Shown here piece by piece: positions 2,422 to 22,111 of a stretch of 64,000 nucleotides of DNA. The stretch is from a virus: the IMG/VR virus record IMGVR_UViG_3300009826_001457, positions 10,654 through 74,653 of that record. One strand, given 5' to 3'. The notes under the pieces are model-generated. The model was given only the letters and a program-made list of their open reading frames with translations. It had not been told where the DNA came from and ran no database searches. The position numbers and the translations under genes were made by a program. The first letter of the stretch is position 1. Each line of letters starts with the position of its first letter.

Positions 2422-4554
2422 TTAACGCATTCCGATACGGGTCATGTTATTCCGTTGCTCGGTAGCAACAATTGTAGGTATTTCACCCTTCAGCATAGAA
2501 ACCGCATTACCAATCATCTTCTTCACTTCCGGCAATGCTTCCTGCGTTACGCCAGCATTAAAATTAAAGTTAGCTTCAACTAAGCTCCTGCCTTGCGTTC
2601 CAACACTCGGAACATTTGCACTTCTGATACTGTCTGTTATGTTGCGCATACCGTCAGAGCCTAAGCCAAACACAAGCTCACTAAAGGCCCTGGTCTGCTC
2701 GGCAGTAAGAACTTGCTCGTTAGGGTCCAGGAATCTTAGACCCGCGCCTCTATTCAAGCCGCCTGAAGCAAAGCGAGGTATGTTAATCGTAGTCGTTACA
2801 CCGGGCGTATTAGCACCGATAAGATTAACCTGCGCTTGTGTCTGTACTACAGCAGCCTGGACATTTGCCGCAACCATAGTAATTTGCTGCAACTGGACAT
2901 TCATTTGGCTAATGGCCTGCCCAATTTGGTTTAGCACGGTGCCAACATTGTCAACCCATCGCTGCATATTTGAAGACAGCATATTAAACAAATTACTGCT
3001 TGACCGCATAACTTCATCATGGAAGCGCTTTACGCTCAATAGTTTTTTCTGCTGTGTTTCACTGAAACGCCTATAGTCTTCATCGTACATTTCAGACAAG
3101 GTTTCCAGTTTCTCCACTTGTACGTTTCTTATCTCCTCAATTATTTCAAATAATTCCTGTGTCATAGCTTCGTCTAAATGCCAAGAGCCTTGGGCATCCT
3201 GGAACCATTCCTGGGCCAGTGCCAAGCGCTCTTTTTCCGCTGCGATTCTTGCTCTATCTGCTTCGGTAGTAGCTTCGGCATAGGCTATGGAAAGACGCTC
3301 CCATTCTTCGATGGCATTGATTTGCTCCTGAGATAAACTCATTAAGTTATTGCCCAGAACCGTAGCAGCACCTTCCATCGGTAAAGCAAAAATAGATTCA
3401 ATTGCTTCCTGCATAGTTGTTTGCCCATCACCTAGCATACGCAAAGCATCGGCAATTGCGTCCCTGGCCGCTGTCGGTATCATCCCGAACTGCTGAGTAA
3501 TAAACGCAAACAAGCCCTCGTCTGACATATGCGAAAACCGTTCTATATTATCCTGTATAGACAGCCAAAGATCTGTATGCTGTTGCCTTACCCCGGCTAA
3601 TCTGCCGTTTAGTTCATCAAATGCGTGTTCATCCCATCCAGGAGCCACAGCTATGATTAAGTTGTTTCTATCTGCCTCAAGCAGATTAGCCGCGCCGTTA
3701 ATGTTTCTTTCTACGTAGGTTCTAAGTTCTTCCGGTGTGAGTATACGTCCGTTCTCTAATATGGGGGTAACTTTTATTGTGATTTCATTTCCGCCTCTAT
3801 CGGATACTTGGAAGTTTTGTGCGAAGGTTGCAGTGGCAGCCCCCTCGATTTCCCATCCGCGCCTGGCCATTTGCTCTGCCGTTACATGCCCGCGGTTATG
3901 TAAGTTAAAGTTGCCATTAATAAGACTGTTAAATTGGTCTGCCAGTATTCGTATTTGATTTTGAACATGCTCAATATCAATATCCATAATAGCTGCGTTT
4001 ATCCTATTGATTAAGTCATTAAGGCTTGTTACATTAAACATTTCCGCAAGGATATCTCTTACCGTTATGCCTTGGCCTATAACTCTTTCAAAAAGGTTTT
4101 GATCTGTTGCGATAAGTACGTTGTTGGCTAGGTTTTGTAAAGCTTCGCCTGCAATTAATATTTGCTGTGTTAGTCTTGTTTTTACATACTCACCAAGGAT
4201 GCCCATGCCTTCGCCAAACTCTTTTTCAAAGGCCCATAGGTCAGCGATTAGCTGTTCATTTACCCCACGCTCCAGGATAGGCCTTGCTTCTGCATAAAGT
4301 TGGGCATTACTTAAACGCTGTACGAACAAAGCCTGTACTGCGTCCCACTCGGCATCAAGCTGCGCGCGCCTTGCATCAAGGGCCTGCATTTCAAGGTCAA
4401 GCTGCGCCCTCAATGCATCCCTTCTATCTCCTAGCTCATTGCGAATATCTTCTCTTCGGTCTCTCTCCGCAGCATCAGCGGCACCTTGCCGCCTATCTGC
4501 ATATTGGCGTTGAAGGTCACGCAAACGAGAAATAGCTTCTGCGTCACCGGTTTC
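2422..4554 (-). CDS. Tape measure protein, exon 2 (C-terminal 710 aa)
   Basis: The frame stays open upstream of the track's TTG to ETGDAEAISRLRDLQRQ. It ends in a typical TMP C-terminus (IPRFASGG...LDPNEQVLTAEQT) and continues the coiled-coil style of exon 1. Confidence 0.85.
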   Translation of the reverse strand, partial: ETGDAEAISRLRDLQRQYADRRQGAADAAERDRREDIRNELGDRRDALRAQLDLEMQALDARRAQLDAEWDAVQALFVQRLSNAQLYAEARPILERGVNEQLIADLWAFEKEFGEGMGILGEYVKTRLTQQILIAGEALQNLANNVLIATDQNLFERVIGQGITVRDILAEMFNVTSLNDLINRINAAIMDIDIEHVQNQIRILADQFNSLINGNFNLHNRGHVTAEQMARRGWEIEGAATATFAQNFQVSDRGGNEITIKVTPILENGRILTPEELRTYVERNINGAANLLEADRNNLIIAVAPGWDEHAFDELNGRLAGVRQQHTDLWLSIQDNIERFSHMSDEGLFAFITQQFGMIPTAARDAIADALRMLGDGQTTMQEAIESIFALPMEGAATVLGNNLMSLSQEQINAIEEWERLSIAYAEATTEADRARIAAEKERLALAQEWFQDAQGSWHLDEAMTQELFEIIEEIRNVQVEKLETLSEMYDEDYRRFSETQQKKLLSVKRFHDEVMRSSSNLFNMLSSNMQRWVDNVGTVLNQIGQAISQMNVQLQQITMVAANVQAAVVQTQAQVNLIGANTPGVTTTINIPRFASGGLNRGAGLRFLDPNEQVLTAEQTRAFSELVFGLGSDGMRNITDSIRSANVPSVGTQGRSLVEANFNFNAGVTQEALPEVKKMIGNAVSMLKGEIPTIVATEQRNNMTRIGMR

Positions 4555-4716
4555 CTTTTATACCCTCGGTTTCCCGATATTTATTAGGGGAATTGACTAT
4601 ATCATGACTATTTTTAATAGCCTTAATGCGCTTCCAGTGGCAGCTCATCTTCCACTGTACTCCCTTGCGGGATAGTCGATACACTTTACTTGATTTGTGT
4701 TTGCTTCTATACAATG

Positions 4717-4745
4717 AAAAAGACTGCTCTAGTTAGGAACAGTCT
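4717..4745 (-). terminator. Terminator-like hairpin after hicB, inside the intron
   Basis: AGACTGTTC-ctaacta-GAGCAGTCT followed by TTTT. Confidence 0.65.
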
Positions 4746-4782
4746 CGTTATGCTAAAATAAGGTAATAGTATGGCTGCTTGA

Positions 4783-5121
4783 CTACACAGCTATATAACT
4801 TTTCATGGCTTCCTCAAGTGCTTCGTTCACACGTTTATTGTTCTTTGCGGAATATAAAACAAAGTCTTTGTGCAGCTCAGGTGAAATAGTCACATTATCC
4901 AGTTTACCACAGTAAGGTATCATCGGCTCGCGATTTTCTGCTTCACAACTAGATAAATAATCATCAACTGCTTCGATAAAACACGCTGTAAGCTCAATGA
5001 GGCTTTCTCCATCATATGAAATTAAGCCAGTTATACCAATAACTTTGCCATGAAGGATATTGTCTTCAGCAGAATACTCAACTGTGCCATGATAGCCTTT
5101 GTGTTCTAATGTATTATTCAA
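4783..5121 (-). CDS. hicB: HicB-family antitoxin (intron-encoded)
   Basis: MNNTLEHKGYHGTVEYSAEDNILHGKVIGITGLISYDGES...FIEAVDDYL...EP..PYCGK, with an RHH-like C-terminus. ATGA overlap with the upstream hicA. Confidence 0.9.
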   Translation of the reverse strand: MNNTLEHKGYHGTVEYSAEDNILHGKVIGITGLISYDGESLIELTACFIEAVDDYLSSCEAENREPMIPYCGKLDNVTISPELHKDFVLYSAKNNKRVNEALEEAMKSYIAV

Positions 5122-5369
5122 AGAACACCCTCCAATCTTAAAACATCTAAAATATGATTGACTTGGTATGCTTTCAAAATATTTCGTGGATGGGGCTTGT
5201 GTATGGCGACATCATATGACTCTCCCCAAAATATAACTTTCGAGCCACTTGTTTTACCCTTGTTTGATTTTTGAAAACCCAGTGAGAGTAGCAGCGTCTC
5301 CGCTTCATCAAAGGTAAAGTCTTTAGGTTTAGATTTTAATCTTTCAATCAATTTCAACTTTTTACTCAT
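5118..5369 (-). CDS. hicA: HicA-family mRNA interferase toxin (intron-encoded)
   Basis: MSKKLKLIERLKSKPKDFTFDEAETLLLSLGF...GKTSGSKVIF...IHKPHPRNILKAYQV. Start at ATG 5369 after GGGAGAGG. Confidence 0.9.
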   Translation of the reverse strand: MSKKLKLIERLKSKPKDFTFDEAETLLLSLGFQKSNKGKTSGSKVIFWGESYDVAIHKPHPRNILKAYQVNHILDVLRLEGVL

Positions 5370-5385
5370 GTGGCCTCTCCCAATC

Positions 5386-5408
5386 AAAAAGGTAGCCTTT
5401 TAGCTACC
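5386..5408 (-). terminator. Terminator/attenuator-like hairpin in the hicA leader
   Basis: GGTAGC-taaaag-GCTACC followed by TTTTT, about 16 nt upstream of the hicA start. Confidence 0.6.
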
Positions 5409-5414
5409 CCCTTC

Positions 5415-5487
5415 TGTTAAATCTCCCATTTATCAGGCAGGGACTCTCCACTTGTTAAATCTCCCATTTATCAGGCAGGGACTCTCC
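5415..5487. repeat. Two perfect 35-bp direct repeats, 38-bp period
   Basis: TGTTAAATCTCCCATTTATCAGGCAGGGACTCTCC at 5415-5449 and 5453-5487. Confidence 0.95.
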
Positions 5488-5499
5488 TCTATCGTATGT

Positions 5500-5528
5500 A
5501 GTATATATTGGCACTTAAGGGTCGTCAA
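5500..5528 (-). promoter_or_regulatory. Sigma-A type promoter for the repeats and hicAB, inside the intron
   Basis: TTGACG-17 nt-TATACT on the minus strand. Confidence 0.75.
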
Positions 5529-5829
5529 TAGCTTCTAGCATAGAACTTTATCAATACATAATAATCAAATACGCATTAGTCTAACATGCTTTTTACACAA
5601 TCAAGTCTTAGCACGGTGTTTTCAGCTACGCATTCTCATGCGCCTTAGAATTTCTTAAAGAGCTACTTCGTCCATGGTCAGCTTCTACTGAAAATAGAAA
5701 CAGGCTTGTTATCTCCTTGTAAGACTTCAACAAGCGGTCTTATTCAACTCTTACCGTTAGCACCGCAGATGAGCCCTGCGGTACACCCCTGAGCTTCAGG
5801 GTTCACATTAAATGGCCTAAACTTTATTA

Positions 5830-8800
5830 AGCCGCTATTCTTAGCTCATTCATCCTCCGACGCAGTTCATCAAGGTCATTAATTTCATCCTGCTGCCTTC
5901 TACGCCGGTCTTCTTCCGCCCATTGCCGTTGTAATGCCCTTAACAAATCATCTATGTAATCGATCTGCATCTGGAAGTGAGCGCGTATCCTATCTCGTTC
6001 CGCATCCAGATGTGCCACTCTTGCGTCATGGGCTTCCCGTTCCAAATCACGTTCACGCTGATGCCTTGCTCTCAACATTGCTATAACTTGATTTTGCAGA
6101 TTACGGACATCGGATATTTGCGATTCAGCTAAACTCCTATGAGCTTCGACAAGTTGATAAATACCCCTGACATTAGCCTGGTATTGGTCTTGTAGGTCTT
6201 GCATTAAGTCTCGCCATGCTTGAGTAGACTGTGTTGTTGCGTCCGTCTGCATACGAAGCCTTACCATCTGGTCTATCAAAGAGCGGGACAGGGAAAGCCT
6301 ATTTTCAAGTTGGTCGTTAAGTAACCGTTCGTGCGTAGCGTGGTCGGTATCGGAGGTAATAGAGATTCTAAACTCAAGATGTGAGAAATGTCTGTCAAAC
6401 GCATCACGCTCTTGTCTAAACTTGTCATTAAACACATCAACTATACGAGCCGCATAAGCACGATATTGCTGCTCCAATTGCTGCATCCTATAACTATCTT
6501 CAGCGGCCCCCATATAAGCAAATCTTCTTTGCTCTTCTAGGATTACTTGTTGAAAATCCCTAAAGATTTCAAGCTGGGCATCAAAATCATTGTTCTCTAC
6601 AGCAATTGATAATCTAAACTCAAGTCTTTCCCGAGTGGCATCAAAAATACTATTCTGAAGGTCTTGCCATTGGTTTCGCAACTCCATAATCTCATTACTG
6701 GAATCATCAAAACCAAGTCGGCGCATTCTGTTGGCCTGCTCATGCAAGTCGTTCTGAAGCTGCCTATATAAATCAATCTGGTCATCAAAGTTCATGAACT
6801 CTCTGGCGCGGGTAAGCTGTAACTGTACACCTTGCTCCCAGTGTCGCCTTACTCCGTTAACCACTTCCAGCTCAAGCCTACGCCATTCATCAAGATATTG
6901 CGCTCTGTTGGCAAAGAATCTTTGGTTAAGACCATCAAGTCTATTAAGGAATGTCTCTTCGGAAATAAGCTGCATATCATGAAGCCAGCGGAGTTCGGCT
7001 ATTTGACGGTTAGCCTCATCCAGCCAAGGATCCCCGCCGCTACTACTGCCGCGGTTAGCCTGCTGTGTAGATGAACGTGAGGGGGCGCTACCGCGTTGAA
7101 AATGATTGGATGCACCACCGGTAGTTGCCGGGGCCATGGAGTTAATGATATCAATATTACGCTGAGTACGGCGAAACGCTTCTTCGATATCCCGCATAGC
7201 CTGTTCGGACAAATGACTTAAATCGCCATACTCACCGCCTATCATCATTTGATTGGCCACGTTTACGGCTGCGGCTAATACACCAAAGTTCTCGGCAGTT
7301 GTTAATGCCTGCTGGCCGATATTAATTAAGCGGGTACGTGCATGGTCAGTCGAGGCTGAAAGTTCGTCTGTTTTCCTTCGCGTATCTTCTTGGATGATTG
7401 CCCGGATTTCTTCGGCAAGTGCGGCCTGTTGGGATGCAATCATTTCTTCCCGCAATGCCTCGGTTTTTTTATCTATCGCAGCGATGTTTAATATAAGCCG
7501 GCCTTCGGAAAATTCAAGGAGATCCAAATACTCGTCTCCCGCTTCTAACAGCCGTTGGACCGTCCCAATCGTTAAGTTACCATGTTCGTTGAACTCATCA
7601 ATGGCCCCGGTCAACAATGAGTATGCAGAAGCCAATTGGTTAGTAGCCTCTACGGCTTGCTCCATTATTTCATTTGCGGTTAAAACGCCATCGCGCAGCC
7701 TTACATACTGGTCATGTAAGTAGTGCATTATCTGTATCTGACCCTGGGTGCGCTCATTCCATGGCGGTAATGAATCAGAAAACTCACGAAATGCTTTCAA
7801 TGCCAACTCTGTTGCAACGGCATTGGCATTCCATGATTCGGTATTAAGCACAAGCTGTCCATTTGCAGTAGTAATATGGTCGGCGATATTTGGCATTGCT
7901 TCCGAAAGCCTAATGAATGTTTCCCAAGATATGTAGCCCTGCGAGTTCATTTCACTTAAAGCGGCTTGGCTTACCGATAAAGCGGTATCCATCCTATTAA
8001 GGGTTTCGATATAATTAAATGTTTCACCCTTTACCGTTAACAGTGTGGCTTCTTTTAACTGAAGCTGTTGGTCAAGCCTTTCTATTTCACCTTGGGTACT
8101 TTCCAACTGCGTTTCCCATCTTTGAATAGCGGCGGTATAGTCATCTAACATTTGCTGCCTAACGGTTGTATCCATACCGGCTGATAGATGGTATATAGGG
8201 TCAATCGTAGGGCGCTGCGATTGCTGTAACTCCAACAGCTCCTGGAGTTCGTTTCTTGCGTTTCTTACTCGGTCAAAATTAGATTGTTGTTGGACCAGAA
8301 TAAAGTCTCTGTAGGCATCGGTATTAAGCCTGATTTGATTACCGACAACATATAAATAATCCAAGTAGTTTTCGCCAAGTTCGTCCATCAATGACGAGAC
8401 TGTACCTGACGATAACCCACCTGTGGTCGCCATTTCATTTTCCATTGAACGTAGAGAAGCCATCCTACTTGATATGTTTGAAATAGCAGTAGAAAAATCC
8501 TCGGCTGAAATTGTGGTCCCTTCAAATGACCTTCTTAACATTATCATCCGGGCATTTAAGTAATCCCAATCAACCGAGTCATCGGCATGGATGTTTAACG
8601 CAATATCACGGGCAAGTAGCAACTCATTAATATTAAGTTCATTAATAAGCGCATGTTCACTGGCTATTAAAACGCGCCGTATTTCATCCTTCATTCCTTC
8701 AATGCGCTCATCGGTAATATAGAACCCTAGTCTTAGCGCAATTACTTCGTTATCCATATTGCTGTCAATGGACTGTCGTATCCAATCAGGCAGGGAGTTA

Positions 8801-11800
8801 ATAAGTCCAAGAATCGTATTGCGGTAATTTTGTGCCGATTGCTGGGCATGGCTTGTGTCAAACAAGTGGTCAATCGCATCAATTAATTGTGGGTTATTAG
8901 CCAGCCCATCAAAAAAATCAGTAAGGTCATCTCCGCTGATTGATGAATTTTCAAATACAGTCTTAAAAAAATCTATTTGTCTACGAGATAAAGATTCCAC
9001 GTTTATTGAAGCAGCCATTGCCAATTCAACAAACTCACCTGATGATGCTCTTATCGCCTGAGCAAGTGCCTCTAGTCTTCGCAGTTCACTTTCCACTTCG
9101 CCTAAAGCGGTTGTTGCTCTGTTAGAATTGGAATCGACTCGCTCCAGCTCACGAAATATTCTGGCAAGCTCATTTAGTGTTTCTATTTGTCCTTCGAGAT
9201 CCAAGCCTTCAAACAAATGGCTAATGCCGGCATATGCTACACCAATACTTTGGATTTCGGTAAACATATTTTCAATGCCCTGTCTTCCGGCTGCGAGAAA
9301 TGCGTTAAATACAGGTACGCTTGGTCCCATCCGCATATCTTGGAAAGTAACCTCTGTGTTCCTTGCCTCGCTTCTCGCCAACATCATTGCGGTTTCAGCG
9401 GCATCTCTAGCAATAACGGCCTGTCTGCGTTCAATTTCTCTTAACTGAGATAGCTGATACGCTAAACCACCATTAACCAAGTCAAGATTCCTGGCTTGCC
9501 CTCCAACCAAGTCTGTAATCTGTTCTTGAATATTCCGGGCTTCAGTGCGTGCAGACTCATCAAAGGTCATAGCGGTTCTCAGCTCTCTATATCTTTCGAT
9601 TAACTGACCAATGGTATGGTAATGCTCTCGTTCCTCTCGTGCTCGTTCCCGGGTAAGTTGTGCGTGTTCCCGGGCTCGTTCTTCTGCGGCACGCTGGGCG
9701 TTAGTAAAGGCCATTAAACCGGCAACGGCAATAGCAATCCATGTAATCGGATTTTTTATCAATGCAGCAGCCATTGTTTTCGCGGCGATACCCACGGCTT
9801 TTAAACTGACTGCTTTGGTTTTGAGCGAAGCAATAAAACCGGCATTGGCAGTTATCCCGGCCTTTGTAGCGGCGTTGCGGGTAATTTCCGCCGTAGCCGA
9901 TTCTAACTTGGCTCCGGTTACTCCCATCAAAGCCAGCCGTTTCTTAATCTGAGCCTGTATATATGCTAAGTCTGTGGCCTTGCCTGCTTTTTTGGCTTTG
10001 TTCACAGCCATTTGAGCGATTACATCTTTTTGCATAACCGCAATATGAGCCGCCTGCGCACCGCTTAGGCTCTTGGTAGCCGCGGTCAAGCTCTCAACCG
10101 TTAATTTGCCGCTTGTTTGCAGGCTACTGACCTGTATTAACGCTGCTCCATATGTACTTAGGTTGGCAGGTAATGATGCAATGGCCGTACCCCAGTTCCT
10201 AAATGAGTCTATTATGCCGGAGGCTACCTTCGTAGCGGCTAGTTGCCTAACCAATGAAATTACCGCGCCCATCACCGGAGGGAATAAGATAAGCTGTCCC
10301 ACTAACCCATTCCATGTTCCTAAAAATCTTGCTACTGCTGTGCCGGCACTGTAAAACCATCCGACCCAACGGCTGCTAACCATACTGCTTACAGTGGCTT
10401 CAAATGCTGTTTGAAACGCGGCCATTCTACCTTCTAATGATTGTTGCCATACAATATTTTCTCTCATTGCTGAGCCGTATGAATACAAGGCTGTTGTGGC
10501 TGCGCCAGCGGCACTGGACATACCTTCCATAAGAGCCGCCATAACCTGACCCTGGCGTACACCGGCAACCAAACGGGTTACTTCGGCTTGCTGTACGTCT
10601 GTTAATGTACCCCAGATAGCAGATAAATCACTTAATATTTCAAATGTGCTTTTAAAGTCCGTGGCAGTTGCCATAATATCTACTCGGCCATCGGTGATTT
10701 CAAGTAATTGTTGATGCAACCTAGTAACCGATTCAGCAGCTCCATCTGCGTACTCACCCATATCCTGTAACTCGCCTGCGGAGTTACGCAAGCGCATCGA
10801 CAATGTACGTAAAGCAGTACCTACGATTTCAGGGTTTTGTATAACCTCGTTCGCAGCTACAATCATACCGATTGACTCTTCAAATGTATTGTTGGCGGCA
10901 GATAACGCGGCTGATGAACGGAACAGGGCTTCACCGATACCTCTTGATGAAATGGCAAAGTTGTTACCGACTTCGTTAAAGGCATCAACGATATGCATAG
11001 CGTTTTGTGCTTCAATATTAAAGGCTTTCATTGTAGAGATTATGGACTGTACCGCATCTTCCATCGGAAGACGTTCAGTACCTACATTACCTACGGTAAA
11101 ATATATGGCTGCTGCATCACCCAGGGCCGTCGCATCGGCTATGCTATATCCAAGTCTTGCGAAGTCGGCTGTAGCATTTATAATCTGGTTAACACTTACG
11201 TTTAATCTCTGAGCCCTAGCGTAAGCGTCTGTTAAGAAATTGGTGTATGTCCTTGCTGTTTCGTCTGTTACCCTGCGTAGGGCTGTCATAGCCCTGTCTA
11301 TTTCTAATATGTATCTTAAAGCACCGCGAAATGTATTAACTAGCCGACCAAACCCAAGCATTGAAACCAAATAAGCGCTTAGTTTTTTACCGGTAGCCAT
11401 AATGGTATCGCCAAAGGACATCTTCGCCCGTCCTGCACCTTGGACTTCGGTTGTAAAGGAGCGTACCCTTTGCGATAATGCTTGGAACTCTTTATTTAGG
11501 GCTGCGTAATGGTTCGTGTTCCCCGCTGCCTCTGCTGTTTGTAAAGCCTCCCGTACCCTATTTACCTCTTCTCTCAAGGTTTGCCAGGTTGCTGCCAGAT
11601 TAGGGTCAGCCTTAAAGGCAGACCAGTTTACACCCATCTTATCCAAGCGGCCCTGTAGCTGAGTTGTCTGCTCGTATAATCTAGTAAAACCTCTGATGTC
11701 GCCTTCTTCTGACCGTAGGGTTCTTAGGGTCTGTTTTGCCAGTTGCAGCTTATCGTTAAACTCACCCGCAAATCTGGCTTGGTCTTCTAAGCCGTTATTA

Positions 11801-14800
11801 TCCCTAAGAGCTTCAAGCGCAGTTACAGCGTCATTAATATTTGCCCGGACCCGGTTCAAAGCATCTTCCGACGCATCTGTATTAAGCCCGAAGTTTAACC
11901 CGGCAAAGGTTCTTTGTAATTCATCAACCGCAAGCTGCTTCCTTTGAATGTCAGCGTCACTAAGCGGCGTTACCGTGGTTCCCACTCTGCCGGAGGCATC
12001 GTTATTGGCCCTGGTTCTTGCAATAGTAATTCTGGCCAGTTCCTGTTCGGCAAATTGTAGGCGCTCATACGCTCCAATCTTATTTTGTAAAACCTGTTCT
12101 TGAGCTTGCAATTCAGATAACCTTGCTCTATTGCTTGGGTCCGTTCTGTTGGCCAACCTTTGTGTTTGGCCTAGTAGTCTTAACGTAGCAATATAATCAG
12201 TGACCGTTTTTGCGTGTGATACTTTTTCGTTATTAAGACCTTTAAGCTGGCTCTCAGCTTGGTTAATGGCCATTACCAAAGAGTTAAACGCCGTTATTGT
12301 AGCGTCCGGTGTCATGGTATTCTTAGCTGATTTAAACTCGCCTAGCTGTGATGTAGCACTGTCAATGGCGGATTCTAAATCAGCGTATCTTTGTGCCAGT
12401 TCGTCAAGTTCTCTGATGCCGGCTCGGTCTAAATCCTGTAAGCCTGTCCTCAGCCCGCTAATACGTGCATCATAGCCGCCGCCTTCGATTTGCCGTTGGG
12501 CAGCGGAAGCGGGGTCAAGGCGGTTAAGGCCCTGGAGGTCGGCTTTCATACCACGGATAATTTCTTGCTGTACCTTTAGCCCGGAGTTAAACTTCGCCAG
12601 AGATGTAGGGTCGTTAATTTCACCAACAACCCTACCTAGTTCTTGAAACTGCTCTTGCAATTTCCCTGTTGTATCAAAGGTATCAAGAAGGCTTCTGGAT
12701 TTATTCTGTAGCGTTGTTATTTGTTCCATGGCAAGCCGCTGATGGGCCTCGGCATCAAACATACCGCTAGGGTCGTGTTTGTAAGCCATTTGCGTTTGTA
12801 GGTGTGCGAAAACCCTCTCACCTTCAGACTTTACAAGCCCAAATGTTTCTTTTATTGTGCGTCCAATATTATCTTGATATGTTATAACTGCTTTTGATAC
12901 TTCATCCGCATTGGAAGTTATGTTAATGGCAACGGGTTGGCCTTCTATTTCACGAATGGCTGCGCTGAAAATGTTTTCAAGCTGCTCTTTAATGTTATTA
13001 GCATCGCCGGCACCAAAATCTAAGCCGCTTATATCTACACCAAGACCAGAAACCTGCGTATCAGCTACAGCTCTTTTGGCATCGCTTAGCGATTCAAATG
13101 CCTCTCCTGTTGCACTGGCCGCCGTTGCCTCACGGTCTAAACGCGCAGCCACATCAGAAGATATACTCGCCTTAATGCGCTCCGCATCTATAGCGCCCTG
13201 TATCGCCTCTGCATGGCTGCGCCATGCATCAGACGACTCTCTTACAACCGCGTTCTCAGTTTTTATGTCCTGGGCGACACCATGGTCAGGAGTTGAATCA
13301 AATGCTTCTTTTGTTACAGGTATGGCTATAGGTGCATCGTCGATTTTCCCCTGAAGCTCTTGCAGTCTATGTAATATGTTTTGCTTCCATTGGTCTAAAG
13401 ATGCTAGGTTATTTGCTTCTATATCCCCAAGGCTAATAGGGGTATCCCCTAACTGACCTTTTAGCTGTATTAAATCCGCAACGATATTTTGTATCTGCTG
13501 CCAATGTGTAACCTCATCCCCATCCGAGTCAAATGAAGCAGTTACTTTCAATTGTTCAAAGGTTGCCAGTTTATCACGCAGTTGCTCTACGGAAGCTCTT
13601 ACGGTATCTTCATCCATTATCGCCGCAACCTCAACATTGGCAACGGATGCAACCCTCTGCAACGCAGACAACTCTGTTTTCGTCGTTGCCAGTTGTTCTC
13701 TAAGGCTTGCAAGGGCGGTAGTATCAACATCACTTAGCCCTAAATCACCGGCAGCCTCACGGACGGTTTCATACATCCCAATTAATTTCTGCAACGAATC
13801 TTGGATGGCTGTAACGGAACCTTGCTTCTGCTCAAGATTTTCTTGTGATATAGATTTGTTGACTTCAATAAGCCTGTTTAACTCTGTAAATGATTCACGG
13901 ATACCATCGTTATTGACCTGTAATCCCATGGCATCGTTTATTATGGCCTTTGCGCCTGTTAATGACTCATCATTAATAATAAGCGCTGTTTCTAATGTAA
14001 GCTGCTCTAAATCACCAACATCAGGTGGAACAACCTTAGTTGAAATATGTATGTCCTTAGTATCAGGAAGACCATCCCCAAGCTGTTGAAGCGCTTGGTT
14101 CGCTTCACCGCCAGCAGCCTGAACGAACTGAATATACCCTGTGATGATAGCTTGATTGCGTTGTATAAAATCTTCAAGCTCTTGTTCGTTAAGCTCTGTA
14201 GATAAGTCCGTTCCGCCTAAATTAAAAAGAGACTCTGTTTGTCTCTCGTTAATGGCCGATTCAACTGGGTTCTGCAATGCCTGCTGTGCGTTTTCATATG
14301 CCTGTTTTAATTCATTTAAGTATGCTATATAGTCTTGTATGGGTTTGGAATCGTAACGCTGTGGTTTTTCAGCTATAAAATTTTCATTGATTCTTTGTAA
14401 GCCAATAAGTGCATCATCAAATTCACGCTCAAGGGCCGCGGTAAATTTTCCAAGCCCCATCCTGCCCACGGCTTCATCTACGTTAAAGGTTTGCCCTATA
14501 AAACCTTGGGATGCTTGGGCTAATTCGGATTGCCTTCTCTGATTTTCTGATAGCAATCGTTGGTGCTCATCTTCCTTAGCGTCATTGATGGCTTTAATAT
14601 GAGCGGCATAGCGTTCGGGGTTGATACTCTCTAATGCTTGTTTAATAGCATTTTTATTGTTAGTGGACATGCCGGTAAACTCATGTAACATCCCAAGCGA
14701 GGCTTTATTATTCCAATGCATAACCTCGTCAAGATTAGTGAAATCACCTGATTGAAGCTGCGATAACCTTTCCAATGCCAATTTAAGACTATGTATCTCG

Positions 14801-17800
14801 CTACCTGCGTCACTGAGCCTACGGATAAAATTATTAACCATGGTTTGCGATGCTGAGTCCAATGCCGATAAAATGCCTTGTAATTGAATCAAATCATCAG
14901 GCAGACTGTCTGGAATGGTTGCCGTAGTTTCTAAGGTTACTTGAGTGAGGTCATCCGGGGTTGGGACTATGGGTACCGCTGCTTCCGTTGGGATGGTAAT
15001 AGGGTCGGCGGCATTTACTTTATTATGTACGGTACTAACAATGCTCGTAAGTTTTGAGGTATCCGCTTCTATGGTTACGGTTGTGCGATGAGCGTCCAAG
15101 TCTTTTAAATCAGACTGGAGGCTTTCAAGTTCTCTTTGTAACAAAAGCGGACGAGGCACTTCATTATCTTTTAAATGCCCAGTACCATGTAATCTCGTAA
15201 GAACAGCTTCGTACTGTTCGGCCAAAGCAATTAACTTGGTTTTGCTTTGTATTGACGCTTCAATACTTTCTCTATAATCCTCCGGCAGTTTAACATTTCG
15301 CAATTCTTGAATTTGCTGCCCAATGTGCCTACTCATTTGTGATGCAACAGGGTCTTCGATTTTTAAGCTTGCGCGGAGCTTATCGGCAGATGCAATGTTT
15401 CTTTCTAACTCCTGTTCAAGACTACTTAAAAATGCTTTAACCGGTTTTCCTAATTGCCCCTGGCCACCGCCTAAGGCATCATGATATTGCTCTGCTAATA
15501 CCCGTGCCCTTTCCAATAACTGCTTCTGTTCTTCTAGCCTCCGTAAAACGTTTTTGCCGATGGTTTCATCGTCAGCCTGCGCCCATCGGCCGCCGGTACT
15601 CTTACGAAGCAAGTTGTCATCTACAGCAGCTTGCCAAGCTCTAGTTCCTCTATTAGCATTTGGGTCCGGTATAACAAAATTTTTGTATGCTTCGGCAACC
15701 GCACGGAGGTCTTCCGCAATTTCCGTCGCCGCCTTGCGCTGAGAAGAGATGAAGCTGGCTGTGTTCTGGCTAGTCCTTGCCATTGTTTCTTTAATGAAGT
15801 CGATGGAAGCGGCAACATCGCCGGAGCCTTGGCCTAATGTAAAGATTGATTCTTGTAAATTAGTTATTGCTGTGTCAAATTCTTCAATAGCTCCCCGTTT
15901 ACGCTCCATATATACACTAAACCGCTCTGTGCCTAACGATTCCGGTATGTCTGCGCTTTGGAGCATTTCGTTCATCATGCGCTTTGCGTTGGTTAATTTT
16001 TGTACAACATCATCGTACCTCGCCAACTGCTCCGCATCCATACTATCAAGAGTTGTGGGCAATCTTGATTCCAAATTAGCTATGGTAGATGGGAGGCCCT
16101 CCATAATAAATATATCGTCTTTTACTGCCTGGACCTGTTGGTGCAGCCTGTACCATTCATCTATCTTTTCGCTTATCTGTCCAAAAGTAATCTCAATAGG
16201 TTGGGTATTGATAGCGGTTTGGATATCATCAATTGTTGCGACCACAGTTTGTTGGGCTTGCTCAAAATTCGCAACGGCTGTTAATTCAATAGAAGGGATG
16301 TCAATAGTACCAAAAGCATGGACGGCATTTTCTCCGGCCAGCTTTAGTACGTTGTTATACTGCATAACCGTAGTAGCAAGTCTTTCTATATGCTCTTGGG
16401 TTATCGCAACCTCATTAACCGTAACAGCCGAAGGGTCGTAATCATGCCTACCCTGAATGGCACCAAACCATCTTTCCTCTAATTCTTGAATAGATTGAGC
16501 ATAGGCAGTCATTGTCTTGACTTGTTCCCTGCGCTGTTCTTCAAACCGCTGCGGAGCATCTCCAAGTTTTGTAGGCGCGGCCCCCACGGGAATCCGCTCT
16601 GTGATAACATCGGTAAACTCCATAGCATACTGCCGCATACCGGTTGCCATGGCGTTTAACTCTTCCTGCGCGGCTTGGGCCTCATGCCGCAAAGATTCAA
16701 TATAGCGTATGTACTCAGAAAACTCTCTTGGAATAATACCTATTTCATGTAAGGCTTCACTGCTTACGCCATGAAATTCGCCTGCCTGTACCCTGTTGGC
16801 CTGTTCAATAACACGCTCTAACTCTCTTCGGGTTTCTTTTTCTTCACGTAGATTCTTCGTAAGCTTTTCAGAGAAAGCGCTTTGTGTTTTATATTGTTCA
16901 ACGATAGTGTTAAAGTCTGCATCGTTAAGCCCGGGGTGCATGTCTCGGAGCTCTGTCCTAGCGAAACGCTCCGCGCCCATTGCTTCGAGCTTTTGCTTTG
17001 CTTCTATGCCCCTGCGTACAATTTCATCTACGGCGGCATCTAAGTTAATATCAACTGGCAGATTTACGGGATTAGCGCTTGCCTTCAGTTGAGCGGCATT
17101 CATTATTTCCCTGACTGTGTTCTGTGTATTAACATCATCCACAGAAGCGGTTAAAGGCATTGTGAAGCTATGCTGCAATTCCTGTAACCTAATTCTTATA
17201 AATTCCAATGCACGGTTAACATTATCTTCATTCAATACGAGGACTTCATTGTTGGTTAAGCCGATATTGCTAAGGCCATCATACTGTGCAAGCAATTGTA
17301 CAAGGCTTTGGAGTGCTGCTTCTTTACCTTTTAATAATTCTATATCCTGCGCTATTGCTATATCATTTTGTTGAGTTGAGGCAACGGCCGGAGTTTGTAT
17401 GGATTGATGTATAACATTAAAGGCATCCGCCAAACTGCGTACCTGCTGCACCACATCGTCGGTTTTTATTTCTATCCTTGCGGCTAAAGTAGTGTCATTG
17501 ATAATATCCCGTATTACGTTTAACGCTTCATGTGTTGCGGAAATATCAGCCTGAGGGTGAACCACGACTCCCAAGTTTGCCAACACTGCTTGATGATGCT
17601 CAATTTGATTTGTGACCCTAAGCATCTGGGTTTCAAGCTGCCCGACAACACTGGCCAGGGATTGAAGCAGTTCTTGGTTTTCATTAACCGCATCGGCGGA
17701 TACGCCGTTTAATTGCTGTGAAGCATTAACGGCCTGCTGGATAAGATTTAAGCGTTTGGTGTATGCGGCAATAATATCTTGTGAAAATCGGGCTTCATCA

Positions 17801-18663
17801 AGGTTATTGGCATCATGTCCAAGCTCTCTAGCCAACTGCACGCCAAGGCTATCCATATCTCTCGAAGATATAGAAGGGATAACAACTTCCGTAATCTGCT
17901 TTAACTGGGTCTTTATATCGGCAATAGTCGCTTCGACTTGGCGCAGGGAGTCTTCCGCAATATTAACACCGACATCTATATTTACAGGGGAACCCGCGGT
18001 CAGAGTGCTGATGTTATTGAACTTCTGCTGAAGCATACTCGCTATCTGCGCTTCATCGAAATTTATCAATGCTTCCATTGGCGGCAACTCTAGCGTAGCC
18101 TTATGTAATCTCTTGAAATCATTTAGGGTATCATTGACTATTTCTTCATTTGCAACACGAACATCATTAAGCCTTTTTAATTGGTCGCCTAAGAAGTTTT
18201 CAAGACCGTCACTGCTTCCAAGCAATGATTTTTGCTGTCTTGTAAAGGTATCACCGAAATTCTCTTGAATCTTCGTTAATCGTTCATACTCCACGCCCAT
18301 TTCTGTGAGCATTTGAACATGTTGTCTAAAATGGCTAACAGACCTTGCATCGCCTATTTCCTCAATATCTCCGACCCTATCCGAAAGTTCGGAAATGCGT
18401 ATTAAGCTATCTCGTATTTCTTTTTCAACGTTCTTAATACTGCCGGGATCAAGTCGTACACCAATTTGAACATCATCTATAGACTTCGTAATGCCGGCGA
18501 TTATATGCTGTGCTTGCTTTTTAACATCACGGCCATCAAGTTCAAGCCTTAGTTTGCCCGTAGATTCTTTGTTGATTATGTTTGATAAATTTCTTACGTC
18601 GCCTTTTAACTGCTCCATATCAATATCAATGGTAGGTGTAACTCTTACTTCATAGTCAGACAT
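5830..18663 (-). CDS. Tape measure protein, exon 1 (4278 aa)
   Basis: Very long coiled-coil ORF with a TP901-type TMP core (AMTALRRVTDET...ATADFARLGYS...IVDAFNEVGNNFAISSRGIGEAL...VGTALRTLSMRL). It ends at ...LRIAA followed by a TAA that is the first three bases of the intron. Confidence 0.92.
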
Positions 18664-21100: not shown

Positions 21101-22111
21101 TTAATCGTTATTCACTCGACATATTCCATTCGCCATATTTATGAGCAACCCGCCGATATGTGCTACATCACTATCCCGCACAACCTCATGCCAATAAGCT
21201 GGTGAATTAATAATCCCGGCACCTACCATTATATCTATGGCTTCCTCCGGGGTAGTTGCTTTTCTATGATTATGGTTAGTGCATCCGCCGTGAACAGCTA
21301 CGGCCGCCATAAGTTCATTCAACCATCGAATTGAAGTGACATTGCGCCAAAATCCTGGGGAATTGATTATGCCCATATCTACCATTGCCTGGATATTTGC
21401 GTCATCAATAGGGAATCTGCTCACAGGAGCAGAAACTCCTTCATTACTAACTACCGTGTTTCCGCTCGTATTGCTATCTAGCGTTAAAAGTCTATGTACG
21501 TCTGCCCTAAAGGTGCCCATGCTCTTTCCATGTCGCGGGAACCAATGCCCCACATCTGCATGGTTAGAAGCTACGCCGCGTCTGCGGCCTTCTGCATGGT
21601 CTATCAGTACTCCGTCAGCCAGTGGATTGAGTTTAAACATTCTGCATAGATGAACACATAGCTCCACAGCTTCTTTGTAAACCAAGTCAAAGTATGCCCT
21701 ATCCGTTAACCCATCTTCACAAATCTCAAAACCAATATGTGAATCATTTGCGGAACCGCCACTATGCCATCCCCTCATATCCCATGGAAGCGTTTGATAT
21801 GTTGCAATCGAACCATTTGCAAGCTTACCTATAAATGCGTGTACGCATACTTGGCGGCCATTGCAGACTGTACAGCGACCGCTACCATTATTCCTCCATG
21901 CATGTGGCCCCATTGCTCGACCTTCAGGATGAAAGTTGTTCCAGTGGTTGTTGTTTGGGTTATGACCCAAATGGCCGTCATCAGGCCCCACATAACGGCG
22001 CAGATTTGGATTGTTAGCGCCGGTGGAATGTACCATTATGCCTCTTACATTTATTGTCCTTCCCGCTATAAAGCAGGCGTTGTTCCTTAACCATAATTGC
22101 TTTAAATTCAT
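21101..22111 (-). CDS. Endolysin, N-acetylmuramoyl-L-alanine amidase (Amidase_2)
   Basis: GIMVHSTGANN...VHAFIG...QTLPWDMRGWHSGGSANDSHIGFEICED...NHADVGHWF. Two C-terminal (M)GIINSPxxW repeats. Confidence 0.9.
   Translation of the reverse strand: MNLKQLWLRNNACFIAGRTINVRGIMVHSTGANNPNLRRYVGPDDGHLGHNPNNNHWNNFHPEGRAMGPHAWRNNGSGRCTVCNGRQVCVHAFIGKLANGSIATYQTLPWDMRGWHSGGSANDSHIGFEICEDGLTDRAYFDLVYKEAVELCVHLCRMFKLNPLADGVLIDHAEGRRRGVASNHADVGHWFPRHGKSMGTFRADVHRLLTLDSNTSGNTVVSNEGVSAPVSRFPIDDANIQAMVDMGIINSPGFWRNVTSIRWLNELMAAVAVHGGCTNHNHRKATTPEEAIDIMVGAGIINSPAYWHEVVRDSDVAHIGGLLINMANGICRVNND

Follow-up and report, generated by a model that had tools for sequence, protein, structure and literature searches.

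The DNA considered here is a stretch of 64,000 nucleotides (nt; hereafter, the window) from the viral record IMGVR_UViG_3300009826_001457, and all coordinates given without another identifier are those of the window. The record is an IMG/VR provirus of 98,788 bp (41.7% GC; completeness only ~55% at 98.8 kb) with genes for a tyrosine integrase and a serine recombinase, and the sequence is found in two termite-gut metagenome runs, both of DNA. From the provirus record, the integrase, and the recombinase, the phage is classed as temperate. The minus strand contains two open reading frames (ORFs), 18663..5827 (4278 amino acids, aa) and 4524..2422 (700 aa from a TTG start), with ~1.3 kb between them. 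The first contains the PhageMin_Tail domain (PF10145), the second matches a tape-measure PHROG weakly, and the frame of the second remains open upstream of TTG 4524, back to position 4557. An earlier note on this DNA, drawn up from the letters alone, took the two ORFs for exons of a single gene encoding the tape measure protein (TMP), interrupted by a group I intron at 4555..5829 on the same strand. This candidate intron, and the genes carried in one of its loops, are the subject of the present analysis.

On the minus strand, exon 1 (5830..18663, 4278 codons) ends in ..NELRIAA, encoded by AGA AUA GCG GCU (GCU at 5832-5830), and is followed directly by UAA (5829-5827), with which the 1275-nt intron opens. 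Exon GGCU (5833-5830) pairs with an intron GGCC (5817-5814), including a U5830·G5817 wobble, and the pairing of the opening UAA with the UUA of UUAGGCC extends the resulting P1 hairpin (5814..5835) to 7 bp, placing the 5′ splice site directly after U5830. The U·G pair at this site is present in 6/6 introns compared, and the remaining five P1 pairs show compensatory changes according to RNAalifold. At the opposite end, the intron closes with the omega-G at 4555, after which exon 2 (2422..4554, 710 codons plus a stop) starts with GAA ACC GGU GAC (ETGD). G4555 is the sole G that restores the frame, and its position agrees with that in the same-site intron of contig L032, described below, and with the aligned position in the intron of Clostridium phage CS266P1. 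Joining 4278 and 710 codons would give a TMP of 4988 aa with the junction LRIAA/ETGDAEAIS (the slash marks the splice junction), and the junction peptide of the spliced protein is predicted to span ..ELRIAAETGDAEAISR... The coordinates, the opening UAA, and the GGCU/GGCC pairing with its U·G are all in the sequence as the earlier note had claimed.

That the two ORFs encode one protein is borne out by homologs. The C-terminal 499 aa of exon 1 are 70% identical to protein P0002, and a search with them gave two long homologs, P0002 and P0003, both of which run on into exon-2-like sequence, exon 2 itself being 61% identical to residues 1790-2497 of P0002. The insertion site reads ..NELRLAA-A-TGDAEAISRIEDL.. 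in P0002 and ..NRLMIAA-N-SGDAEAISRLEDI.. in P0003, and two further homologs, P0128 (..ELKIAA-A-TGDAEAIS..) and viral contig L031 (..KLMIAA-N-TGDAEA..), are likewise uninterrupted at this position. Exactly one residue lies between AA and TGD in 4/4 of these homologs; the RIAA/E/TGD spacing of the predicted product is the same, and of the Gs close to the 3′ end only G4555 yields it. Homologs ending at RIAA and followed by a separate downstream gene, which the earlier note named as a contrary outcome, were not found, L032 being an intron-split gene and P0126 lying outside this check. A single-query search of viral contigs with the exon 2 protein, and an alignment search of genome contigs, returned no TMP relatives. 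P0002 (2497 aa) starts at about residue 2490 of the window TMP, and the N-terminal ~2400 aa of the window ORF have no counterpart in the called P0002 gene.

The most informative relative is L032, a 7.7-kb JGI contig whose TMP tail is 54% identical to exon 2. Its gene is interrupted at the same site as that of the window, with ..RRRMNELRLAA (..GCGGCU) followed by UAAUUAUAGGCC at the start of the intron and UAUAAGAG at its end followed by GAA ACA GGA GAU (ETGDAEAISRLQDL), so that the predicted window junction and the 4988-aa product agree with both the homolog spacing and the L032 junction. The cores of the two introns share 71% identity over 214 nt and 81% over 156 nt (3′ domain). The L032 intron is 1628 nt long and has, in its P6 loop, a 403-aa ORF with an I-HmuI NUMOD-like domain. 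This ORF is 51% identical to a 409-aa ORF in the P6 loop of a second TMP intron, that of L031 (IMGVR_UViG_3300010167_000026, 3331-5008), and the latter matches a homing-endonuclease PHROG (E 3e-16). The L031 intron is inserted 21 nt downstream of the window's site (..TGDAEA/ISRIEDL), and the intron family appears to target ..GGCU in this region of the TMP gene, because at that distance the L031 intron uses the identical GGCC guide.

Beyond TMP genes, relatives were recognized from both ends of the intron. A 27-nt 3′ element, of which the window contains one copy (expectation 0), is 85-90% identical in ~250 phage records (Herelleviridae and other Firmicute phages); in three of these, which were inspected, its place is immediately 3′ of a homing endonuclease ORF within a split gene. 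Matches to the 5′ core come from CS266P1, from two intron types in IMG/VR, and from the L031 and L032 TMP introns. In CS266P1, the equivalent splice sites rebuild KLP/DIDVDF, with PF07733 spanning residues 2-102 (exon 1) and 103-260 (exon 2), a reconstruction that favors the first G of the terminal GG as the omega-G. Pattern scans of viral contigs gave no matches to the long pattern; of the 24 matches to a 16-mer, 17 were chance ones in coding DNA. The nearest non-TMP relatives are L001 (CS266P1), L014 (with L009, L012, and L013), and L018 (with L007 and L015), all of which seem to interrupt, at differing positions, genes for DNA polymerase III alpha; the host gene is identified by Pfam for CS266P1 and L018, and for L014 it is suggested by a weak HHH_6 match and motifs. 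The endonuclease ORF lies in P6 in CS266P1 and in P8 in the L018 type, and is absent from the L014 type.

The secondary structure of five introns was built by using the conserved junctions as fixed points and folding the stretches that vary. On the minus strand, the 5′ catalytic domain (5595..5813) comprises P2 (5801-5787), P2.1 (5782-5762), the 5′ strand of P3 (5763-5759), P4 (5756-5753 with 5617-5614), an extended P5/P5a/P5c, and the 5′ strand of P6a (5605-5595). The 3′ catalytic domain (4555..4700) comprises the 3′ strand of P6a (4700-4689), J6/7 with the 5′ strand of P7 (4684-4672), P7.1 (4671-4662; CCCGCAAGGG), P7.2 (4657-4635), the 3′ strand of P3 (4632-4628), P8 (4622-4606), J8/7 with the 3′ strand of P7 (4605-4595), and P9 (4590-4563). 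The conserved core is recognizable in P7 (GACUAU/AUAGUC), J8/7 (AUGAUA), P3 (GUGCU/AGCGC), and P4 (CGGU/ACCG), and P2, P2.1, P4-P5, P6a, P7.1, P7.2, P8, P3, P7, and P9 are kept in all five introns despite sequence differences. In an RNAalifold analysis of six 5′ domains, 29 of 52 pairs carry compensatory changes (P1, P2, P2.1, P4, P5, and P5a-c), and in one of seven 3′ domains, covering P7, P7.2, P8, and P9, 14 of 24 pairs do so; five of the six P7 pairs are invariant, while P7.2, P8, and P9 covary. P3, P6a, and P7.1 were established intron by intron. Comparative analysis thus backs the core helices that the earlier note had described as readable. The IA2 subgroup, which Michel and Westhof are said to have defined in 1990, is reportedly marked by two additional helices, P7.1 and P7.2, that separate P7 from P3′; both are present in the five introns, and P7.2 covaries, which makes the window intron IA2-like. 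A likeness to the T4 td intron is presumed. Helices P2.1, P6a, P7.2, and P8 differ between the window and L032 by compensatory changes, a sign that selection has gone on maintaining the structure, in P6a even after the proposed exchange of cargo.

P6a, with 11 pairs and one bulge (−13.5 kcal/mol; 5605-5595 with 4700-4689), closes an insert that measures 924 nt from one conserved anchor to the other; the unpaired terminal loop accounts for 894 nt of it (4701..5594). The equivalent helix encloses 518 nt in CS266P1 (HNH ORF) and 759 nt in Bacillus phage Grass (HNH/helix-turn-helix ORF), and the P6 loops without an ORF are 48 nt in L014 and 25 nt in L018. This loop in relatives holds an HNH or helix-turn-helix endonuclease gene (CS266P1, Grass, L031, and L032) or nothing (L014). 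The window loop has no homing endonuclease, and no similarity to the L031 and L032 endonucleases was detected in the window intron or in the source record. Instead, its only ORFs are genes resembling hicA and hicB, embedded in a cassette that runs in the sense orientation from promoter through two repeats, a hairpin with a U-run, a ribosome-binding site (RBS), hicA, and hicB to a terminator-like hairpin. The promoter (5500..5528, minus strand as for all cassette features) is of the sigma-70 type, TTGACG-17-TATACT, with 10/12 matches. It is followed by two tandem 38-nt repeats (5415..5490) with identical 35-nt cores (5487-5453 and 5449-5415), whose unitig depth of about twice that of the flanks is consistent with two copies, and for which Rfam gave no known RNA family or riboswitch. 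Between the repeats and hicA lies a terminator-like leader hairpin, GGUAGC/GCUACC plus U5 (5386..5408).

The hicA-like toxin gene (5118..5369, 83 codons) is taken to start at ATG 5369 behind the RBS GGGAGAGG (5381-5374), which is likelier than the TTG at 5387 given in the ORF list, as that codon falls in the U-run of the leader hairpin. Its product matches PF07927 marginally (29.3 bits, cut-off 27) and the toxin family phrog_8887 with E 6e-16; no solved HicA structure was detectable by sequence. The hicB-like antitoxin gene (4783..5121, 112 aa) overlaps the hicA stop with its start by 4 nt, and its product matches PF05534 (25.2 bits, cut-off 21) and phrog_9151, a family of HicB-like antitoxins (E 4e-32). 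With adjacent PF07927 and PF05534 genes, the pair qualifies as a predicted HicAB toxin–antitoxin (TA) system of type II. HicB has 216 homologs, the three nearest of which, 62-79% identical, were looked up and found in ordinary bacterial or TA-rich contexts. An intrinsic-terminator-like hairpin of 10 pairs with a T-run (4717..4746) follows hicB, within the P6a loop.

The leader of the cassette has a traceable source. A scan of metagenome contigs for the repeat core returned four termite-gut contigs (L034:840-1160, L035:1455-1690, L036:1-115, and L038:1575-1768) in which promoter, three homologous repeats, hairpin, and RBS are arranged like those of the window, L038 ending within the repeats. 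In L035 and L036, a ToxN/AbiQ gene of 171-174 aa follows (PF13958, E 1.9e-48 and 7.4e-47), and in L034 a near-identical 174-aa ORF follows the repeats. The window promoter aligns with the toxIN promoters of L035 and L038, the window hairpin (5408-5386) has the position and shape of the hairpin between repeats and toxN in L034-L036, and the leader as a whole can be aligned with toxIN loci beginning at the −35 box and extending through the RBS, with divergence setting in exactly at the start codon. No ToxN gene was found behind the window repeats or in the 98.8-kb record, which is ~55% complete. With repeats and hairpin homologous and the toxin gene absent, the array is an orphan and the locus falls short of a type III TA system. 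By its sequence, the cassette is thus a recombinant, in which the leader of a type III TA locus, including the orphaned antitoxin-RNA repeats, stands in front of a type II hicAB pair. In three-unit arrays, the middle repeat unit keeps a 3-4-bp hairpin by compensatory changes (CCC/GGG vs CCAA/UUGG). The repeat is also high-copy (depth up to ~148) in two termite runs without the phage.

Given promoter and terminator of its own, and gene callers that report two ORFs, the locus might alternatively be read as two neighboring genes, independent of each other, between which a mobile TA cassette or moron has inserted, without any intron. The comparative data already contradict this: the flanks of the cassette make up a complete group I core, with homologs among the introns of DNA polymerase and nrdD genes, and both ORFs are one protein in homologs. 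We regard this reading as practically discounted. The reading we prefer, with a probability of about 0.88, is that 5829..4555 is an IA2-like group I intron of the td/SPO1 type, inserted in the TMP gene, in which a TA cassette has replaced the endonuclease. The replacement is indicated by comparison with the same-site intron of L032, which has its 403-aa I-HmuI-like endonuclease in the loop. In the proposed mechanism, the late pre-mRNA would fold into P1-P9, and exogenous guanosine would attack after U5830, held by the GGCC guide in the U·G wobble; the freed exon 1 would then attack after the omega-G at 4555, joining ..RIAA to ETGD... Ligation would yield a single TMP of 4988 aa, and unspliced RNA would stop at the opening UAA. 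With UAA at intron positions 1-3, we may reasonably infer that tail assembly depends on splicing. The P6a loop, from which the comparison indicates that the endonuclease was displaced by the TA cassette, carries by its sequence an independent sense-strand transcription unit, with the leader hairpin as a possible attenuator; the leader itself came from a toxIN locus, toxN being swapped for hicAB exactly between RBS and start codon.

Several observations weigh against the intron being of this kind and active. Only DNA runs match the sequence, no RNA runs containing it having been found, so that splicing stands as a prediction. A late transcript must read through the two hairpins at 5408-5386 and 4746-4717 to reach exon 2. 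The putative P10 pairing, between a guide GUUU (5822-5819) and AAAC, is present but weak, with only 4 bp, and the L032 intron at this site lacks it. Within the intron, forks in the Logan unitigs occur at 4665-4694 and at 5738-5767. Finally, the group I intron model of Rfam, RF00028, gave no match for the whole window at gathering thresholds, for 4300-6100 at E<=10, or for the 3′ domain alone.

The last of these points is best judged against introns of the same group. RF00028 likewise misses three control introns, in the Grass gene for DNA polymerase, the nrdD gene of Enterococcus phage EF1, and the DNA polymerase III alpha gene of CS266P1, in each of which an endonuclease ORF separates two gene halves. 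The compact, ORF-less L014 intron, by comparison, can be aligned over the whole length of the model and scores 30.3 bits (E 5.7e-6; the gathering score is 50). The covariance-model check that the earlier note had proposed thus came back negative, and by these controls the negative is judged to be a false one, the window being missed because of the 924-nt stretch between the P6a strands and the extended P5. As to P10, the earlier note had cited it in support of the 3′ splice site; the choice of G4555 stands on frame, homolog spacing, and L032, and P10 has been downgraded as independent support because L032 lacks the pairing.

The absence of RNA evidence for splicing, the loss of the homing endonuclease, and internal terminator-like hairpins that could shorten the transcript would also suit a decayed intron that no longer splices, in which case the phage would make a truncated 4278-aa TMP and translate the C-terminal 700 aa separately from TTG 4524. 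We consider this unlikely. The core elements are all intact, the compensatory changes relative to L032 in P2.1, P6a, P7.2, and P8 point to continued selection, no Shine–Dalgarno sequence precedes TTG 4524, and the sequence on both sides is one polypeptide in four homologs.

The unitig forks bear on a different question, namely whether the hicAB loop belongs to this intron. A real intron could have been joined in assembly to a foreign loop through core sequences common to sibling introns, and besides the breaks themselves two facts would fit such a chimera. One unitig, of 161 nt, has 4665-4699 (P7 and the 3′ strand of P6a) in common with the window and then runs into another loop, with a terminator-like hairpin at its end; in addition, unitig depths are 9.4 and 10.1 in the exon flanks and 13.8 and 11.9 in the loop pieces. 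The forks arise from exact 30-mers that sibling introns of the sample have in common, one such sibling being seen in an 8.9-kb contig with 5783-5819 (the P1/P2 segment) behind a different exon ending ..ACCGGCU. They mean that the link between cargo and intron rests on assemblies of larger k and on P6a complementarity. Against a chimera, the exact shared stretches are ~30-35 nt, well under read length; the 3′ strand of P6a lies on the hicAB unitig and the complementary 5′ strand on the promoter unitig, in a form specific to the window intron; a single contig of 173,061 bp is on record with both HicB and TMP exon 1; and two runs yield identical pieces. A chimera is therefore even less probable than a decayed intron, and the assignment of the cargo to the window intron is sound. 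No intron-less allele was seen, none of the DNA contigs showing the exons joined at the splice sites.

The surroundings of the gene are unusual for a tape measure gene. Just downstream lie a gene resembling antitoxins (phrog_4681, E 2.6e-13; 714-1094) and one resembling transcription regulators (1716-2297), and upstream an endolysin-like gene (21101-22111), all on the minus strand. Accessory genes also lie directly upstream of the called TMP ORFs on the ENA ERZ27257345 contigs of P0002, P0126, and P0128: a PemK toxin gene and a 73-aa gene on the opposite strand for P0002; a 91-aa gene and a 135-aa Asp-protease-like gene for P0126, which starts ..EAISRL, that is, at the intron site; and six small genes, one with a SocA_Panacea domain, for P0128. 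Cargo may thus interrupt the TMP genes of this phage group repeatedly.

As to the function of the cassette, one possibility is that the P6a loop serves as a cargo bay, in which the orphan ToxI array would neutralize ToxN abortive-infection toxins of the same habitat and hicAB would act as a prophage addiction or exclusion module, the ribozyme allowing such genes of defense and counter-defense to be housed in an essential late gene without cost. This proposal is tentative, and we would sooner doubt it than rely on it. If the cargo is expressed, intron loops would be usable space for accessory genes of phages, and orphan ToxI arrays may be a natural device against abortive infection beyond the laboratory case of phage PhiTE. 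What is new at the level of the intron is that the same intron, at the same codon in related phages, holds a homing endonuclease in L032 and a promoter-to-terminator cassette in the window, the cassette itself being, by its sequence, a recombinant of a type III TA leader and a type II TA pair. In the literature, no group I intron carrying a toxin–antitoxin system was found. A practical consequence also follows, in that Rfam-based screens miss this intron group, so that annotation of metagenomic phages is likely to report a split TMP gene wrongly as a pair of genes.

The TMP gene as a host is not itself new; the earlier note had placed known phage group I introns mostly in DNA metabolism genes, with some in terminase or lysin genes. 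In the available text of Tourasse and Kolsto 2008 (PMC2504315), IA1/IA2 group I introns named TMP-IVS1/2/3 are described at three sites in the TMP genes of Bacillus cereus-group prophages, with related introns at different sites via an adapted P1 and several without an intact endonuclease gene. Tape measure genes are thus already known as hosts of group I introns, and the window intron adds a member. The likeness extends to the sharing of one guide at two TMP sites, here 21 nt apart in the window and L031. The differences, drawn from that description, are that the window intron belongs to a termite-gut provirus with a TMP of ~5000 aa and that accessory cargo does not figure in what the text available to us says of the Bacillus introns (PMC2504315).

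With the T4 td and SPO1 DNA polymerase introns, the window intron shares the layout P1-P2-P2.1-P3-P4-P5-P6(a)-P7-P7.1-P7.2-P3′-P8-P7′-P9 and an ORF in the P6a loop; it differs from them in its host, a virion gene, in a TA cassette instead of an endonuclease of the I-TevI/I-HmuI type, and in a much extended P5. A second parallel is offered by IStrons, which, according to the text available from Tourasse et al. 2014 (PMC4227781), are group I introns fused to an insertion sequence (IS) element. In both, a group I ribozyme would protect the interrupted gene from harm by the unrelated DNA it carries as a passenger. In an IStron this passenger is a transposase, which gives mobility; in the window intron it is a TA and antitoxin-RNA cassette in P6a without obvious mobility. 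The pair itself resembles other HicAB systems in its small, overlapping genes with the toxin first, both passing their Pfam cut-offs, and stands apart in lying inside an intron, behind an RNA leader of type III style. That leader, in turn, has promoter, tandem repeats of ~36-38 nt, terminator hairpin, and RBS in the same order as toxIN/abiQ loci, with which it can be aligned end to end, and differs in having two repeats, not three, and hicA-hicB behind them. The closest functional precedent would be the pseudo-ToxI of PhiTE, in which, by the part of the report available (Blower et al. 2012, PMC3475682), a phage carries ToxI-like repeats without toxN, and it may be speculated that the array in the window acts in a similar way.

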